Origin: Myxococcota bacterium
GTDB taxonomy: Bacteria; Myxococcota_A; UBA9160; SZUA-336
Assembly: GCA_965247115.1 (NCBI GenBank)
Contig: CBDFGR010000002.1
Span: 1,280,001-1,344,000 of the forward strand
DNA length: 64,000 nucleotides
Direction of reading: 5' to 3'
Made by a program: the position numbers and the translations under genes. Shown piece after piece: positions 12,744 to 27,030 of the stretch (its first letter is position 1; the number at the start of each line of letters is the position of its first letter). The notes beneath the pieces were generated by a model, which saw only the letters and a list, made by a program, of their open reading frames with translations, ran no database searches and was not told the origin of the DNA.

Positions 12744-12869
12744 GCAGAAGGCCGAGCCGGCTGGCGGCGTGGCACCGCAGCTCCCGCAGGTGAGCTCGAG
12801 CCGCGCGCCGCACGCGCTGCAGAAGGCCGAGCCGGCCGGCGGCGTGGCACCGCAGGTTGGACAGGTCAC
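12744..12869 (-). pseudogene. Double zinc-ribbon N-terminus of an adenylate cyclase/AAA ATPase, truncated
   Basis: MTCPTCG...AFCSACGARLELTCGSCG...AFC; near-identical 37-bp direct repeat at 12744-12780 and 12819-12855. Confidence 0.7.
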
Positions 12870-12948
12870 GGTCCCATCTTACCTCTCGAAGAGAGGCTCC
12901 TAGGACCGGCAGTAGCGCGTCAGGTAAACATCAGGTTTCGGCCAGCTC

Positions 12949-13130
12949 CTAGCGAGGATGAGCCGGATCGAGCGAGCCGAAGCCCGACAGCCCCAACTCC
13001 CTCGCCACCCGCTCCGCGTGCCCGGCCGCGCCCATCTCGGTGTAGAGGTGGTGGGCATCGCGGAGTTCACGCTCGCGGGTAGCGTTGTCGTCGAGCAGGC
13101 GCGCGATCTCAGCTCGCGCTTCCGCAACTT
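12949..13130 (-). pseudogene. C-terminal fragment of an adenylate cyclase-AAA-TPR protein
   Basis: RERELRDAHHLYTEMGAAGHAERVAREL resembles the C-terminus of the intact gene at 46735-50022. Confidence 0.7.
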
Positions 13131-13181
13131 GAGGCAAATAAACCGTTAGGCCTGTTTCTTCGATGCTCCGGGGCGGCCGTT

Positions 13182-14150
13182 AGCCTGCACGCGGGCGTCG
13201 GCGTCCCTGCGCGGGACCGCGCGCGCCTCGAGCGACTCTGTCGCTACGTGGCCCGGCCGCCCATCGCCACCGAGCGTCTCTCCGCTCTCCCCGACGGGAA
13301 TCTCTCCTACCGGCTCCGGCACCGCTGGCGCGACGGTACGACCCACGTCGTGTTCGAACCGCTCGAGCTGATCGAGAGGCTGGTAGCCCTGATCCCACCC
13401 CCCCGTGCGCACCAGGTCCGCTACCACGGAGTGCTTGCCCCCTGTGCCGGCTACCGCGATGCGGTCGTTCCCGGCCACCTCTATCCGGCCACCACAACTC
13501 CCGCTGCCGAGAACGCCGCAGCCCTTGCTGCAGAGCCGGCGCGGGACGAGCCACAGCCTGCGGCCCAGGTCCACAGCGACTGTCGCGGCTCAGAAGCACA
13601 CGCGACGGATGCCGGGCGCCCCAACGCGGGTCCACGACGCGCGGAGTCGGCGCCCGAAGGGGCGCCCGTAACCTCCGCGCACGCTGATCCTGCACAGTTC
13701 TCCTTGGCCCGGCCCCTCAGACAGCGACTCCGGTGGGTGGACCTCATGCGTCGCGTCTTCGCGGTCGACGTCCTCGCGTGTCCGCGTTGCGGAGGCCGCA
13801 TGCAGCTCATCGCTGCGATCGAACAGCCGCGCGTCGTCGAGGCAATCCTCCGCTGTTTGGGACTCTCCGCGCGACCTCCACCCATGGCCCCGGCGCGCCC
13901 AATCGGCCAGCCCGTGCTGCCGTACGTCGACGCCCTCTAGAGAGACGATCGTCAGATCCTCGCCCTAGCTCGGCTGCAGAACCGATGCGCGCCGCACGGC
14001 AGCCGTGCGCCTCCGCAGGGCACCGAACGGGCTCAACCCCGGCCGCACTGGCGTACCACCCGCTTAAAGGCCCCGCGCCCCGGCCCTCAGACCAATCGAT
14101 AGGACGGGAAGGGCCATTGTCACAACCCGAAAAACCCTCTTAAACTCCCT
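13182..14150 (+). mobile_element. IS91/ISCR rolling-circle element, 5'-truncated; transposase fragment ends at 13940; putative oriIS end interrupted at 14150
   Basis: LERLCRYVARPP single-Tyr ISCR-type motif, WRDGTTHVVFEPLELIERL, RYHGVLAP, CPRCGGRM. Confidence 0.8.
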
Positions 14151-14359
14151 TCCATAGGGTAGGAGCGCAAGACAGACTTCCCCGATCGCCACAGATTCTT
14201 CGATCCTGGCGTCTGCTCCCGTTGTGGCTAGGCGGTCTCGAGTTGAGAGTTCGTGCTCGTGGTTCCGTCGGAGCAGCGGCGGAGCCTCTACGAGCTGCTC
14301 GGTCTGAGGATTCGTACGAGGGCAACCCCATCGCATCGCGATTCGTTGGCGTGTGTGCT

Positions 14360-14525
14360 CTCCACGGAAACGTGGGAACCATCCTTCCATCTGGGCCTCT
14401 GTCGGCCATCGCTTCGTTTGGTTCTTCGGAGGGGCATAGCTTATCCGTCGGACCTCCAGGCTCTTGGGCCGTCGGCCAGGGAGTTTATGGATGCTCACCT
14501 CCGCGGCCACGCAGAGCGTGGCATG
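14360..14525 (-). ncRNA. Predicted bridge RNA (seekRNA) of the IS1111 element
   Basis: 5' hairpin 14506-14522; target loop with guides at 14478-14487 and 14440-14446 matching the insertion site; donor loop with guide at 14384-14390 matching the element end; RNA ends approximate. Confidence 0.8.
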
Positions 14526-14593
14526 CGAACACTCTTCGCGGCTGTGTACTCGAATGATTGCCTTCTCGTCGACTCTCCCGATCGAGCGGTCGC

Positions 14594-15660
14594 CTAGCCT
14601 TCGCACGTCTCCGTGGGCGGACTGGCTCGTCCGGGGTTGTACTCCTCCTCGTCCTTCCACATCCGTAGCACCGTGGCTGCGATCATGCGGGCCAAGCTGA
14701 GCTTTGCGAGCGTCGGCTTCGTTCCACCATCGAGAAGCCGCTGGTAACGCGCATGGATGGGATCCTTGTTGCGCTGCGTGATCACCGTCGTCGCGGCGCC
14801 CTTGAAGATGCTCTTCAAGACGCGATTGTGCTGGCGGGAGAGCCCTCTCGTCTGAGGAACCCGCGCCTGGATCCAGCTTCCATCGGCCGTCTGGACCCAG
14901 TCCGAGCTCGAGCGGGTCACGATACCCAGCCCGCAGTAGCTCCAGAACTGTCGCTTCGTGCGGAAGCGGTGGGGCGTCACGACAATCGGGACCAGTCGTG
15001 CTGCGCGGATCGGTCCGAGGCCGGGTGCGGTCTCCAGGATCGGGACGATGGGGTGCTTCTTCGCCTCTCGAAGGAGATCGGCCTCTGCCTGCTTCTTCTG
15101 CTCCCACAAGAAGTCGAGATGATCGTAGAGTCTTGTCGCTCTCGTCTGCGCGCTGGAGCAGAGCTGCTTCTGCCACTCGTCGCGGCGACGCGGGCTGTAG
15201 ACATCCAGGCCGGTCACCAGGACACCGCGCGATCGGTACAGGCTCTTGATCCGAGCCTGCACCCGCACGACGTCTCCGACCCCCGTCATGTGGATCCGCG
15301 AGAGCTCGCGCAGGCGCGTGAACTCTCGCGGTGCCTTGAAGACCGGCTTGTCGAGGTTCCCCATGCGCAGCTTCTCGGCCAGGCCATACGCATCGCGCTT
15401 GTCGCTCTTCGAACCCCGGCTCTCCGTGATCCCCGCAACCACGATCTCGTCCACGTGAGGACTCAGCGTCTCGTACAGCCACGCGCTCTGAAGTCCCTCT
15501 TCGAAGACCAGATACTTCCGGCCCGGAATCATGCGGACGGCCTCGACCAGGGCCTGGCCGTTGGTCTCACCGGGAAGTCCTTCAACCGCTTCCCTGTCTG
15601 CGAGATCACCGCCAGCGTGCAGCTCGCGGCGTGGATGTCCATCCCGATGTATCGTTCCAT
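14594..15660 (-). pseudogene. IS110 DEDD recombinase with a 1-nt frameshift near 15568
   Basis: MERYIGMDIH in one frame, then FEEG, KSDKRD, PGLG, FWSYCGL...RSSS in the next; RBS GAGGAGG. Confidence 0.85.
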
Positions 15661-15821
15661 TGGTGCCTCCTCTCGTTGGGTATTGTTGATTTCCCAACTC
15701 GAGGATTCCCGACGGGCTCGGGAGGCACCACCCTCCGCCTCCGGGCTCACGGCTCGCCCTGCAGACGCCATACCCCTATGATGCTTATCCCCATCGACAG
15801 ATTTGGGCAGAGGGGGATCCC

Positions 15822-16687
15822 ATGAAGGTCTGCACCCGAGCGCTCGCTCTCCTCGTCATCGCATTGCCGATGACTCTCCACGCCGCACCGGAGGTCGTGC
15901 AGCTGCAGACGGAGGGGCTGAATGCAATCGAGCTCGAGGCCTTCGACCCCTTTCTCGACTCCGTGGTCCTCTCGGGCGTCAGCGAGTACGCGATTAAGGA
16001 GCTGTACCGCGGTGAGTTCGTAGCCGCATTGTACGAGGCAAAGCCGGCGCTTCTGGACATCATCAGTACGCCGTTCCCGTTGGACGAGTTCGTCTGGGTG
16101 ACGAGCGGCGAACTCATCCTGACCGATGTCGATGGACGCAGCGAGAGCTACGTGGCGGGCGACACCCTGCTCGTTCCCAAGGGCTGGAAGGGCACCTGGG
16201 AGATGCGCGGCAACTATCGCGAGTTCGTCGTGATCGAGACCCGCGCCAACGACAGTGTGGATGGCTTCTGGAAGAACATCGGGCTGATCATCGCGGGTTG
16301 GTTCCGGGATACGCCCCACGTGGTGCCGCTGCCGGCCGAGGAGTTCCGGCGCGCCGAACTGGAGCCCGTGCAGCCCACGTCGGCTGATCTCAAGATGACC
16401 GGCGGCGATCCGGAAGCCTGGAAAGCGGTGGGGAGTTCATCGTAGAGCTGTACGCCAGCCCCGCGGCCGTCGTGCAGATCGACGATCCCTTCCCCTACGA
16501 CGAGTTAGTGTGGATGCTGTCTGGCGAGCTGGTTCTGACGCCGACGGGGGGCGAGGCGGTAACCTACGGCGCGGGTGAGGGCGTGGTGGTGCCCAAGGGA
16601 TTCGTGGGAACCTGGGAGACGCGAGGCGACTACCGCGAGTTGATCATCATCGAGACCCGGGCCATGAATCGGGTCCACGAGGAGTAG
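15822..16687 (+). pseudogene. Secreted tandem cupin (DUF861/EutQ-like) protein, split near 16430
   Basis: Two repeats of PFPxDExVW...SGEL...VPKG..GTWExRGxYRE in different frames. Confidence 0.7.
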
Positions 16688-16690
16688 ACG

Positions 16691-21193: not shown

Positions 21194-21511
21194 TGAGCCG
21201 AGTTTGGACAGATGGGGTCGATGATCTAAGAGAGGGTTCCGGGCTCTGAGGGGAGAAGGAATCCATGGCCAAGAAGGAATCGGCAGAGAAGGCGGGCCGA
21301 GACATCCGACGGAAGACACGACGGCGGTTCTCGGCGGAAGAGAAGATCCGGATCGTGATCGAGGGCCTGAGGGGCGAGGAGAGCATCGCCTCATTGTGCC
21401 GCCGCGAAGGCATCGTGGCGAACCTCTACACCCGCTGGAGCAAGGAGTTTCTGGAGGCGGGCAAGAAGCGCCTGCTGGGAGATACGCAGCGAGAGGCGAG
21501 CTCGAGTGATG
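21194..21511 (+). mobile_element. IS3-family fragment (left end and truncated orfA from 21265)
   Basis: TG-starting end; RRRFSAEEKIRIVIEGLRGEESIASLCRREGI HTH. Confidence 0.8.
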
Positions 21512-21763
21512 GCACCTGGCGAATATAAGCCGACTACAGCGTCAGGCATCGCGCTGATCGGGCACGAGGTACTTCACGCACAGCAGTATCAAGAGCTTGG
21601 GAACTTCCGGTTTAGAGTCCGCTACCTGAGAGAATATCTGGGAGGCCGGCTGGGTGGGTTGAGCCCCGATGAGGCCTACGAGAAAATCTCCTTAGAGCAG
21701 GATGCGTCTGCGTTAGAAGATCGAATACAGCCCGATCTCGTAGAACAGGGTTATCCCCGATGA
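21512..21763 (+). pseudogene. Orphan DUF4157-like (HExxH) toxin C-terminus, copy 1
   Basis: LIGHEVLHAQQY; near-identical to 26210-26458. Confidence 0.7.
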
Positions 21764-22287
21764 ACACCTGCAAGCAAGCGTCGCTCTCTCTACTCGCTGT
21801 TGTGCTGCTATTGGTCCTGGGGCTTAGCGTCTGCGATCCCGTGCCATGGGTTCGGTGGTTGGTCGCCCGCAGCTGCTCCGACGTCGAGAAGGAGTTTTTC
21901 CGCAAATCGGGTCCCGAACGACGGCGTTTGATCCTCGACTACCCGCTCGAGCAGCAGGTTAATCTCTATCTAAAGTCGTTTCATTGCAGACATCCGGGGG
22001 ACTTGAGCCTGTCGGGCGTAGTGGCCAGCAACGGAGCAGACATTGTTCCCATTCTGAGAGATCGCATTATAGAAATTGACAGCGAGCATCACAAAAGTGT
22101 CCTAGTCGGTATCTTCTTCGATATGCAGTTTTCTGGCTACTATCCGGTTGCTTCGGACACTGAAACCATGAACTTCTTAGAGCAGCAAGCAGCATTAATG
22201 GAAGATACCGTGTGGAGGGAACTAACCGTTAGGGATATTATGCTGATTAAGAAGAAAGGCGGGTTGAGGCCAAGCGAAGTCGCACAG
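21512..22287 (+). repeat. 776-bp diverged duplication of 26210-26985
   Basis: Gap-free manual alignment. Confidence 0.95.
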
Positions 22288-25447: not shown

Positions 25448-26458
25448 ACCCCACGCGGGTTCACCGACCACGAGCATCTGGACGACTTCGCGCTCGTCCA
25501 CATGAACGGCCGGATCTACGACCCGGTGCTGGGCCGGTTCCTGAGCGCGGATCCGTTCATCCAATTCCCCGAGTCGACCCAGGGCTTAAACCGCTATAGC
25601 TACACACACAACAATCCGCTGTCCTTCACCGACCCCTCGGGCTACGTCTTCAGGTTTCCTTTGCCCGTATGGCTTACTTTCGAGACCGTGTCCCTAAACA
25701 TCCGGAGGGAGATCTTCCTCAGCGACCTAGCCCACTCCATTGCCAATCTCCTCGGTCGCGTGTTCCGGCGTGCGGATACCGAAAGCCCCGCCAACGTGTT
25801 CCACCCCGCCGATCCGATCGAGACGCCTCCCCAGGGCGCGGGTGGGGAGGTCGGCTCGGAGCACGGCCGCGACCGCTTCAGGCAGGAAAGTGTCGCCGAC
25901 TCGGTAACTCGCCGATTTATGGCAGCGGAGGGCCGAATCGTCCGCGACGCTGTCGTCGGAGCCATCGCTTCCACCCTCGGAGGCCAAAAGTTCGCTAACG
26001 GCGCAGTCACCGCCGCATTCGGAAGGCTGTTCGCAAACGGTGCAGCCACCGAGGGTCAGGGATTTCCCTTACCGCGCGAAGTCATTGATGCTCTCGATCC
26101 TTACTTCGAGAATTTCGACCTCCACGACATTCTTGTCCGAATGGGCATACCGCGGTATGTCCGCGGTGACCGAATCGTAGCCTATACGGACAAAAACAAT
26201 ATCTTCTTCGCACCTGGCAAATATAAGCCGACTACAGCGTCAGGCATCGCGCTGATCGGGCACGAGGTACGTCACGCACAGCAGTATCAAGAGCTTGGGA
26301 ACTTCCGGTTTAGAGTCCGCTACCTGAGAGAATATCTGGGAGGCCGGCTGAGTGGGTTGAGCCACGAGGAAGCCTACAAGAACATCTCCTTTGAGCAGGC
26401 TGCGTCTGCGTTAGAAGATCGAATAAAGCTCGATCTCGAAGAACAGGGTTATCCCTGA
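25448..26458 (+). pseudogene. 5'-truncated RHS protein: core plus DUF4157-like HExxH C-terminal domain
   Basis: RGFTDHEHLD...HMNGRIYDPVLGRFLSADP...NRYSY..NNPLSFTDPSG; HEVRHAQQY. Confidence 0.88.
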
Positions 26459-27030
26459 TGAACACCTTCAAGCAAGCATCGCTCTCTCTACTCGCTGTTG
26501 TGCTGCTATTGGTCCTGGGGCTTAGCGTCTGCGATCCCGTGCCATGGGTTTGGTGGTCGGTCTCCCGCAGCTGCTCCGACGTCGAGAACGAGCTTGTCCG
26601 CAAATCGGGTCCCGAACAACGGCGTTTGATCCTCGACTACCCACTCGAGCAGCAGGTCGATCTCTATCTAAGTTCGATGCATTGCGTACATCCGCCGGAC
26701 CGGAGCCTGTCGGGCGTAGTGGCCAGCAACGGAGCAGACATTGTTCCCATTCTGAGAGATCGCATTATAGAAATTGACAGCGAGCAGTCCAAAAGTGTCC
26801 TAGTCGGTATCTTCTTCGATATGCAGTTTTCTGGCTACTATCCGGTTGCTTCGGACACTGAAACCATGAACTTCTTAGAGCAGCAAGCAGCATTAATGGA
26901 AGATACCGTGTGGAGGGAACTAACCGTTAGAAAGATCATGCTGATTAAGAAGAAAGGCGGGTTGAGGCCAAGCGAAGTCGCACAGGGGGATGTCCCGGAG
27001 GCTGTTGGACTTGAAGACTTGAAAGACTGA
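26458..27030 (+). CDS. Putative immunity protein, copy 2 (stop replaced by IS256, 14 extra residues)
   Basis: Paralog of 21760-22290; TGATG coupling to the toxin. Confidence 0.7.
   Translation: MNTFKQASLSLLAVVLLLVLGLSVCDPVPWVWWSVSRSCSDVENELVRKSGPEQRRLILDYPLEQQVDLYLSSMHCVHPPDRSLSGVVASNGADIVPILRDRIIEIDSEQSKSVLVGIFFDMQFSGYYPVASDTETMNFLEQQAALMEDTVWRELTVRKIMLIKKKGGLRPSEVAQGDVPEAVGLEDLKD

Follow-up and report, generated by a model that had tools for sequence, protein, structure and literature searches.

An IS1111-like element of a Myxococcota genome is probably RNA-programmed for the oriIS end of ISCR/IS91-type elements

In the genome of a Myxococcota bacterium (assembly GCA_965247115.1), an IS110/IS1111-like element was found inserted at the oriIS end of an ISCR/IS91-type rolling-circle element. 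We propose, with a probability of about 0.85, that the insertion site is real, that this targeting is general within the clade of the element, and that the seek/bridge RNA of the clade is programmed to direct insertion to the oriIS end of ISCR/IS91-type elements. The insertion point, CCT/AT (the slash marks the junction), two bases ahead of a variable tetranucleotide, is used repeatedly by the clade. All positions refer to the window, which is the whole stretch of 64,000 nucleotides that was analysed, and the features needed here are the following.

13170..13940, plus strand: 3' fragment of an ISCR/IS91-type HUH (Y2) transposase, 5' half absent
13941..14150, plus strand: 3' non-coding DNA of the ISCR, with the oriIS terminal motif at its end (...CCCTCTTAAACTCCCT) and with position and motif order as in ISCR relatives
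14073..14150, plus strand: origin core of about 78 bp, also dispersed as transposase-less copies, often with a CCGC start
14117..14146, plus strand: outward promoter-like site inside the origin, TTGTCA-18-TAAACT (consensus match only)
14151..15786, minus strand: IS110/IS1111-like element of 1,636 bp (empty-site comparison, lengths of relatives, skip in run X5)
14154..14161, minus strand: inverted repeat at the right, sub-terminal with 3 bp outside it (from the sequence)
15771..15779, minus strand: inverted repeat at the left, sub-terminal with 7 bp outside it (perfect over 6-7 bp, 8/9 with one gap)
14594..15660, minus strand: DEDD recombinase gene (PF01548 and PF02371), frameshifted near 15568 in the window
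14370..14500, minus strand: predicted seek/bridge RNA scaffold, limits approximate (where an alignment of 55 elements is most conserved)
14478..14487, minus strand: predicted target guide 1, RNA UAAACUCCCU (blind mutual-information scan)
14440..14447, minus strand: predicted target guide 2, RNA CGGAUAAG, covering the last AT of the origin and the first bases of the tetranucleotide that follows
14384..14391, minus strand: predicted donor guide (GAUGGAAG), matching the right end of the element
15787..15792, plus strand: rest of the target, AT (origin end) and CCCC (ISCR target tetranucleotide; from 49 ISCR ends)
15822..16445, plus strand: unrelated cupin-domain gene (PF05899) downstream of the origin

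The original prediction had placed an IS1111-type insertion at an oriIS end, about 210 bp downstream of the stop codon of the ISCR-type transposase and shortly before an unrelated gene. Both distances were confirmed, the first junction lying 210 bp past the stop at 13940 and the cupin gene starting 35 bp past the second. The empty site had to be corrected: the restored 17-mer that had been put forward has no occurrence in the genome, whereas the motif with one T fewer has three. Uninterrupted copies in the same genome give CTTAAACTCCCT/ATCC as the true empty site, and since nine uninterrupted origin ends read ...CCT/ATC or a near variant, the bounds of the element were set at 14151-15786. The "one extra base" relative to the ISCR consensus that had been noted before was an error of the restoration; the corrected site is free of it. 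Excision of 14151-15786 restores the natural empty site with no target duplication, as is characteristic of the IS110 family. Outside the sub-terminal repeats the element has 7 bp (AAGCATC) on the left and 3 bp (GGA) on the right, in agreement with the terminal extensions of IS1111 elements, 7 bp left and 3 bp right (PMC11187229, in excerpt). Related elements mostly measure 1,639 bp by our script. A contig of run X5 joins 14149 to 15786 and skips 1,636 bp, which corresponds to an empty allele at this locus; because it is one contig with a short side of 46 letters, searched at 88% likeness, a repeat could mimic this result.

Other repeats were seen in the window. A 48-bp direct repeat (12744-12866) lies upstream of the truncated ISCR, and 12900-13120 has scattered matches in the genome. 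Downstream, 15822-16688 contains a tandem pair of cupin-like repeats (direct repeat of 101 bp, 75%) with a stop near 16445 between them, and may represent one gene with another assembly error. An HTH_Tnp_1 (IS3-type) ORF fragment occupies 21265-21528, and 21512-21811 is duplicated at 26210-26509 (95%).

PF01548 (DEDD) and PF02371 (Transposase_20) scored above cut-off both in the window ORF and in L108, an intact 355-aa relative of its recombinase, while NF033542 gave 100 bits on the frameshifted ORF, below its cut-off of 140. Near 15568, contigs from all four runs searched have one base more, with full depth in X1, X5 and X6; the frameshift, absent from the matching contigs of these three runs, is probably an assembly error. 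The sub-terminal inverted repeats of IS1111 elements are usually 11-13 bp long and near perfect. Those of the window element, 6-7 bp perfect or 8/9 with a gap, fall short of the strict IS1111 definition and are borderline for the loose one, a range of 7-17 bp being given in PMC11208160 (in excerpt). The non-coding DNA, 443 bp downstream of tnp (14151-14593) and 126 bp upstream, follows the IS1111 arrangement, and the order of the guides on the minus strand, 14487-14478 before 14447-14440, is that of IS1111 seekRNAs, in which the top-strand guide stands 5' of the bottom-strand guide (PMC11187229). Features of the broad IS110 family, as read from the sequence, are the DEDD and Transposase_20 domains, the lack of target duplication and the guide-like segments matching target and donor. 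The recombinase shares 25-28% identity with its best plasmid-borne IS110-family hits (below 28% among the best 25 listed), a sequence search of the PDB gave no hit, and the closest named relatives of the element come from genomes labelled Deltaproteobacteria or Myxococcota. Because the repeat is short and the protein was set beside plasmid-borne IS110-family hits with no named IS1111 protein among them, we file the element as IS1111-like and not as an IS1111 member.

The transposase fragment that precedes the insertion matched PF04986 with 74.5 bits and, weakly and far under the whole-protein cut-off, NF052416 (ISCR clade Ia, E 1e-31). Its full-length relatives (450-580 aa, 49-61% identity, one partial hit 75%) carry PF04986 and mostly PF14319; the Zn domain, absent from the 5'-truncated copy of the window, is present in these relatives and as a separate N-terminal fragment on contig C3 of the same genome. 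Of the 225 genomes of the class, 123 contained matches to the fragment. The ISCR end was mapped through such relatives by examining 69 transposase-linked 3' regions (29 + 40), from which 49 ends were kept, the others being short, truncated or unresolvable. As expected from the original prediction, the same terminal motif recurs at about 190-260 bp past the stop (193-258 bp), with unrelated DNA beyond. These ends share TTG[AT]CA ... TTATCGG ... CTT-N-CCTAT and are followed by a [C/G]C[G/T]C tetranucleotide, which is CCGC in 15 of the 49. ISCR1, ISVsa3 and another plasmid IS91-family element show TT..[AT]CTTCCTATAC at 223-235 bp past the stop, and the published 232-bp ISCR1 oriIS region, which ends 232 bp after the stop (PMC6218425, in excerpt), closes with the same terminal motif. 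If the four final bases represent the target tetranucleotide, the insertion would be 2 bp inside the end; relative to the published ISCR1 end, the figure is 6 bp. According to an excerpt of PMC13181058, a tetranucleotide adjoins oriIS in IS91-type elements, and IS91 requires its last 82 bp together with this tetranucleotide.

The fixed distance of the motif in 49 of 69 transposase-linked regions, the unrelated sequence beyond it and its presence at the published ISCR1 end make it very improbable that the repeat of about 80 bp is a separate REP- or MITE-like sequence often located behind ISCR genes, and not oriIS. Most copies of the repeat are transposase-less, as such a separate repeat would be, and the window origin is a divergent subtype that reaches a mere 6.0 bits on our model of ISCR ends, which speaks against the oriIS reading; an uninterrupted full-length ISCR with this subtype was found in none of the 225 genomes. 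Against a separate repeat, origin pieces of 131-151 bp in the same-genus genome G014 extend into the ISCR 3' region. A second transposase-linked copy (C2:822688-823188) is interrupted at the same base as that of the window. The origin pattern had no occurrence in viral contigs.

An nhmmer search of the own genome returned 22 origin hits, nine of them empty, six filled, i.e. running into the IS right end, and seven truncated or weak. All six true IS right ends adjoin an origin and all five left ends continue with [T/C]TATCC; two further loose matches were discarded as chance hits. G014 has 11 origin matches, one of which is filled. Dispersed origin-only pieces of about 80 bp occur in the own genome (C2:777063, 789607, 1081130, 1082642, 1199642 and 2162195, C3:838059 and others) and in G014 (L282-L292). 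Many of them have a CCGC start, the commonest ISCR tetranucleotide here, and an end in CCTAT followed by CC, and several lie just upstream of genes. They look like non-autonomous mini-ISCRs or short products of one-ended transposition, and their size is close to the 82 bp sufficient for IS91. A second, more typical origin subtype exists in three copies (near C2:2098927, C3:650451 and C2:30202), all empty and transposase-less, whose variable bases differ from the guide of the window element.

Two rearranged loci were also noticed in this genome. At C2:2197299-2199110, an origin is followed by about 19 bp of the IS right end, a gene of about 490 aa, amidohydrolase-like by eye, and 83 bp of the IS left end, so that a cargo gene is enclosed by IS110 ends; C2:1092775 and C3:2363187 carry further copies of parts of this region. 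At C3:1212193-1213723, the N-terminus of an ISCR transposase (81% to P0001) is fused to a reversed IS110 element without right end, as if an ISCR::IS110 composite had undergone a deletion.

To see how general the targeting is, 185 loci of related elements were collected (76 + 80 + 29, both contig scans being limited to their best 80); an end was located in 127, and 82 had a right flank of at least 45 nt, corresponding to 66 unique flanks. An HMM was built from the 49 ISCR ends only, with the last 5 nt left out and a cut-off of 10 bits; the poorly called L225 and L236 had been removed from the training set, and L087 and L223 had been trimmed. At least 10 bits were reached by 42 of the 66 unique flanks, a count that is partly circular since the training ends were chosen with the motif pattern. 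Control values were 3/178 for flanks of the other side, 4/3,928 for genomic CCTA[TG] sites, all four of them origin-like, and 0/1,320 for shuffles, and leave-one-out recovered 47 of the 49 ends. The model replaced an earlier nhmmer model from 25 ends, which was too insensitive (21/66 at 10 bits or more, window unscored). Of the 66 flanks, 49 have the short terminal motif, vs 457 of 3,928 background sites. Among the 24 flanks below 10 bits, five belong to an IS3-type class described below, about ten keep the short terminal motif only and the others look off-target.

Two relatives, L010 (87% aa) and L037 (55%), are inserted immediately downstream of ISCR transposases, at the identical base. In the original prediction, homologous IS110 insertions were expected downstream of IS91-family transposases; the association with ISCR ends is far over background, while the transposase itself stands in the expected place in only one of 37 long unique flanks. 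Conversely, of 40 transposase-linked regions none was flagged as carrying the IS right end, and inspection of the 29 others by eye revealed none either. The usual substrate thus appears to be an origin-only remnant. In a quick tree of 70 rows without bootstrap, the window element falls within a clade of 53 rows (SH-aLRT 100, at least 74% identity) with origin insertions throughout. More distant members (48-58% aa) are mostly at other sites: none of 29 reached 5 bits on the ISCR-end model, which also missed L037 among them, and L037, L040 and L048 are origin-like by eye only. One such distant relative (L051-L061) has the same RNA scaffold and is inserted in palindromic REP- or attC-like repeats of an Acidobacteriota genome.

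The non-coding regions of 55 complete elements were aligned and have a conserved scaffold in common. A blind mutual-information scan of 54 of them (L154, whose left end was mis-called, was left out) picked two segments, guides 1 and 2. Guide 1 of the window element reads TAAACTCCCT, an exact match to the last 10 origin bases before the junction. Over the 54 elements, 5.24 of its 7 variable positions match the origin, vs 3.35 ± 0.16 after permutation (maximum 4.06 in 20,000), and with the 32 distinct guides the values are 5.28 and 3.12. For guide 2, 13 of 25 non-consensus guides match the flank exactly, vs a permutation mean of 1.7, and 24 of 29 consensus guides are found at GGAT. The elements being kin, these permutation figures overstate the effect. 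The candidate donor guide varies by eye with the right end in the distant L037, L040, L042, L050, L063, L064 and L032; the blind scan identified no second donor guide in the non-coding region, and neither a candidate near 14335 nor an initial placement of guide 1 near 14428 was supported by it. Folding of the non-coding region, as single sequence or alignment, gave no convincing structure, and no Rfam family came near threshold for it. Because two non-coding segments co-vary with the target, targeting is most likely RNA-programmed, as had been proposed.

Six copies (L006, L007, L123, L160, L162 and L165) are inserted 43 bp inside the left end of another element, which we assign to the IS3 type because of its TG start and its likeness to the HTH_Tnp_1 ORF of the window. 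In the four of these copies that were aligned, both guides are altered to fit the IS3-type target, and the five placed in the tree are nested inside the origin-targeting clade. In a comparison of the guides of L142, L152 and L155 and of L260, guide 1 (TGAACTTCCT) has exactly the sequence with which the origin of an IS91-family element ends in an E. coli plasmid record.

These data also bear on a less probable but plausible explanation, that the RNA recognises a word of 14-15 bp only and that origins are hit as the main suppliers of this word, without selection for origins. About one third of the flanks are without full origin context, sister lineages are at other sites, and 5 of the 11 genomic sites that differ from the 14-bp target at no more than two positions are not preceded by an origin body, all of which would fit such an explanation. 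However, these five origin-less words are all empty while the six insertions in the genome are all at origins, and the 32 distinct guides still match origin variants, a pattern that would not arise by drift towards an arbitrary word. The mechanism would in any case be the same as in RNA programming for oriIS, and the two differ only on why origins are hit.

By reference to the biology of the IS110 family, the element would excise or copy itself as a circle and express its RNA; no circle joint was among the joins listed for the contigs of the runs. The DEDD recombinase would pair about 10 nt of this RNA with the origin end, a second pairing of about 5 nt would involve the AT and the start of the tetranucleotide, and recombination would then leave no duplication. 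The benefit for the element may be a plentiful intergenic landing pad, multiplied by the ISCR transposase, mostly as origin-only pieces of about 80-150 bp.

The original prediction viewed the element as hitch-hiking on ISCRs or disabling them. Hitch-hiking is conceivable since the left end of the element restores ...GCTTAT before CC, a natural origin ending at which the ISCR transposase might still nick, with the IS110 element as passenger; CTTAT or CTTAC closes 6 of the 49 natural ISCR ends, and L166, L167 and L169 combine an identical element and near-identical 330 bp upstream with three different downstream flanks. All three are contigs from metagenomes that contain a multi-copy element, and their joins may be wrong; the origin motifs upstream of such an ending are displaced by 1.6 kb. 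Pairs of filled and empty sites with the same downstream flank exist at this locus in X5, at C3:1212193 vs C2:2162118 (332 bp, 87%) and in G014 (L286, L291). Identical transposases are associated with differing origin variants (L108/L109, L166/L168), and guide 2 follows the flank, a correspondence that one would not expect to persist if the HUH enzyme carried the element along. These three observations argue that the origins were there before the insertions, so that hitch-hiking appears unlikely and independent insertion is the reading that the data favour. As to disabling, the insertion would put 1.6 kb between the origin body and the nick site with its tetranucleotide, and inactivation of that origin is for this reason the likeliest outcome. 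The outward promoter-like site (one found vs 0.2 expected from shuffles) would also be severed from the cupin gene.

A more tentative extension is that rolling-circle elements have in this clade a dedicated RNA-guided hyperparasite, engaged with them in a sequence chase in which the 6-7 variable bases of the origin diversify to escape and the guide follows, each insertion shutting an origin and cutting its outward promoter from the next gene. Since the guides span both the origin end and the host-derived tetranucleotide, only integrated, transposition-ready origins would be seen. If so, relatives of the element could be natural brakes on ISCR-driven gene spread, an idea prompted by some natural guides that read like the end of an enterobacterial-plasmid IS91-family element.

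The proposed targeting of origins would have several implications. ISCR transposition had no experimental proof according to an excerpt of PMC6218425 (2018), so that a site-specific interrupter would offer a direct handle on origin function, and the insertions mark the ISCR oriIS end to the base. If they inactivate origins, these elements would limit both the spread of ISCRs and the ISCR-driven expression of downstream genes. The 32 distinct natural guide-target pairs and one clean retargeting event may be useful to derive mismatch rules and to study longer guides in bridge recombinases.

Partridge and Hall reportedly dealt in 2003 with IS4321/IS5075-type insertion and Tn21-family terminal repeats. 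IS4321/IS5075, of the IS1111 family, insert site-specifically into Tn21-family transposons, at their 38-bp terminal repeat (PMC6052338, in excerpt). The window element resembles them in using a specific site at the end of a different mobile element, with the difference that their target is the repeat of a DDE transposon and not the rolling-circle origin of an HUH element. With the seekRNA systems of ISKpn4, ISPst6 and ISPa25 (attC), ISPa11 (REP) and ISEc11, as described in an excerpt of PMC11187229, it shares the long non-coding region downstream of tnp, the 7-bp and 3-bp terminal extensions and a top-strand guide 5' of the bottom-strand guide; it differs from them by its target class, its shorter and imperfect sub-terminal repeat and a predicted first guide of about 10 nt that tracks origin variants. 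The bridge RNA system of IS621 (PMC11208160, in excerpt) likewise has a DEDD recombinase and RNA segments that match target and donor, found by covariation, whereas its RNA is upstream and its core shared; the inferred target and donor cores of the window element would be one base different. On the target side, ISCR1, ISVsa3 (ISCR2), IS91 and IS1294 have a Y2 transposase with 37-44% identity to a full-length relative, and ISCR1 and ISVsa3 carry the same terminal motif, 223-235 bp past the stop. Unlike these named elements, the window ISCR clade ends in CCTAT followed by [C/G]C[G/T]C and its copies are mostly origin-only remnants.

In agreement with the earlier remark that this target class is not known to be described, we found no report of oriIS as an IS110/IS1111 target in searches of the non-subscription literature; target tables in supplements and in ISfinder may bear on novelty. 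The main text of PMC11187229 and PMC11208160 has no occurrence of "IS91", and the parts covered of PMC5737581, PMC13750824, PMC6052338, PMC13604230, PMC13393415 and bioRxiv 10.64898/2026.08.14.744561 do not describe such a target. Rolling-circle origins would thereby be an added class beside the known IS110/IS1111 targets, i.e. transposon repeats, attC and REP. By analogy, the element seems to work like IS4321/IS5075, the attC group and ISPa11, as an IS1111-type element aimed at the repeated sequence of another element.
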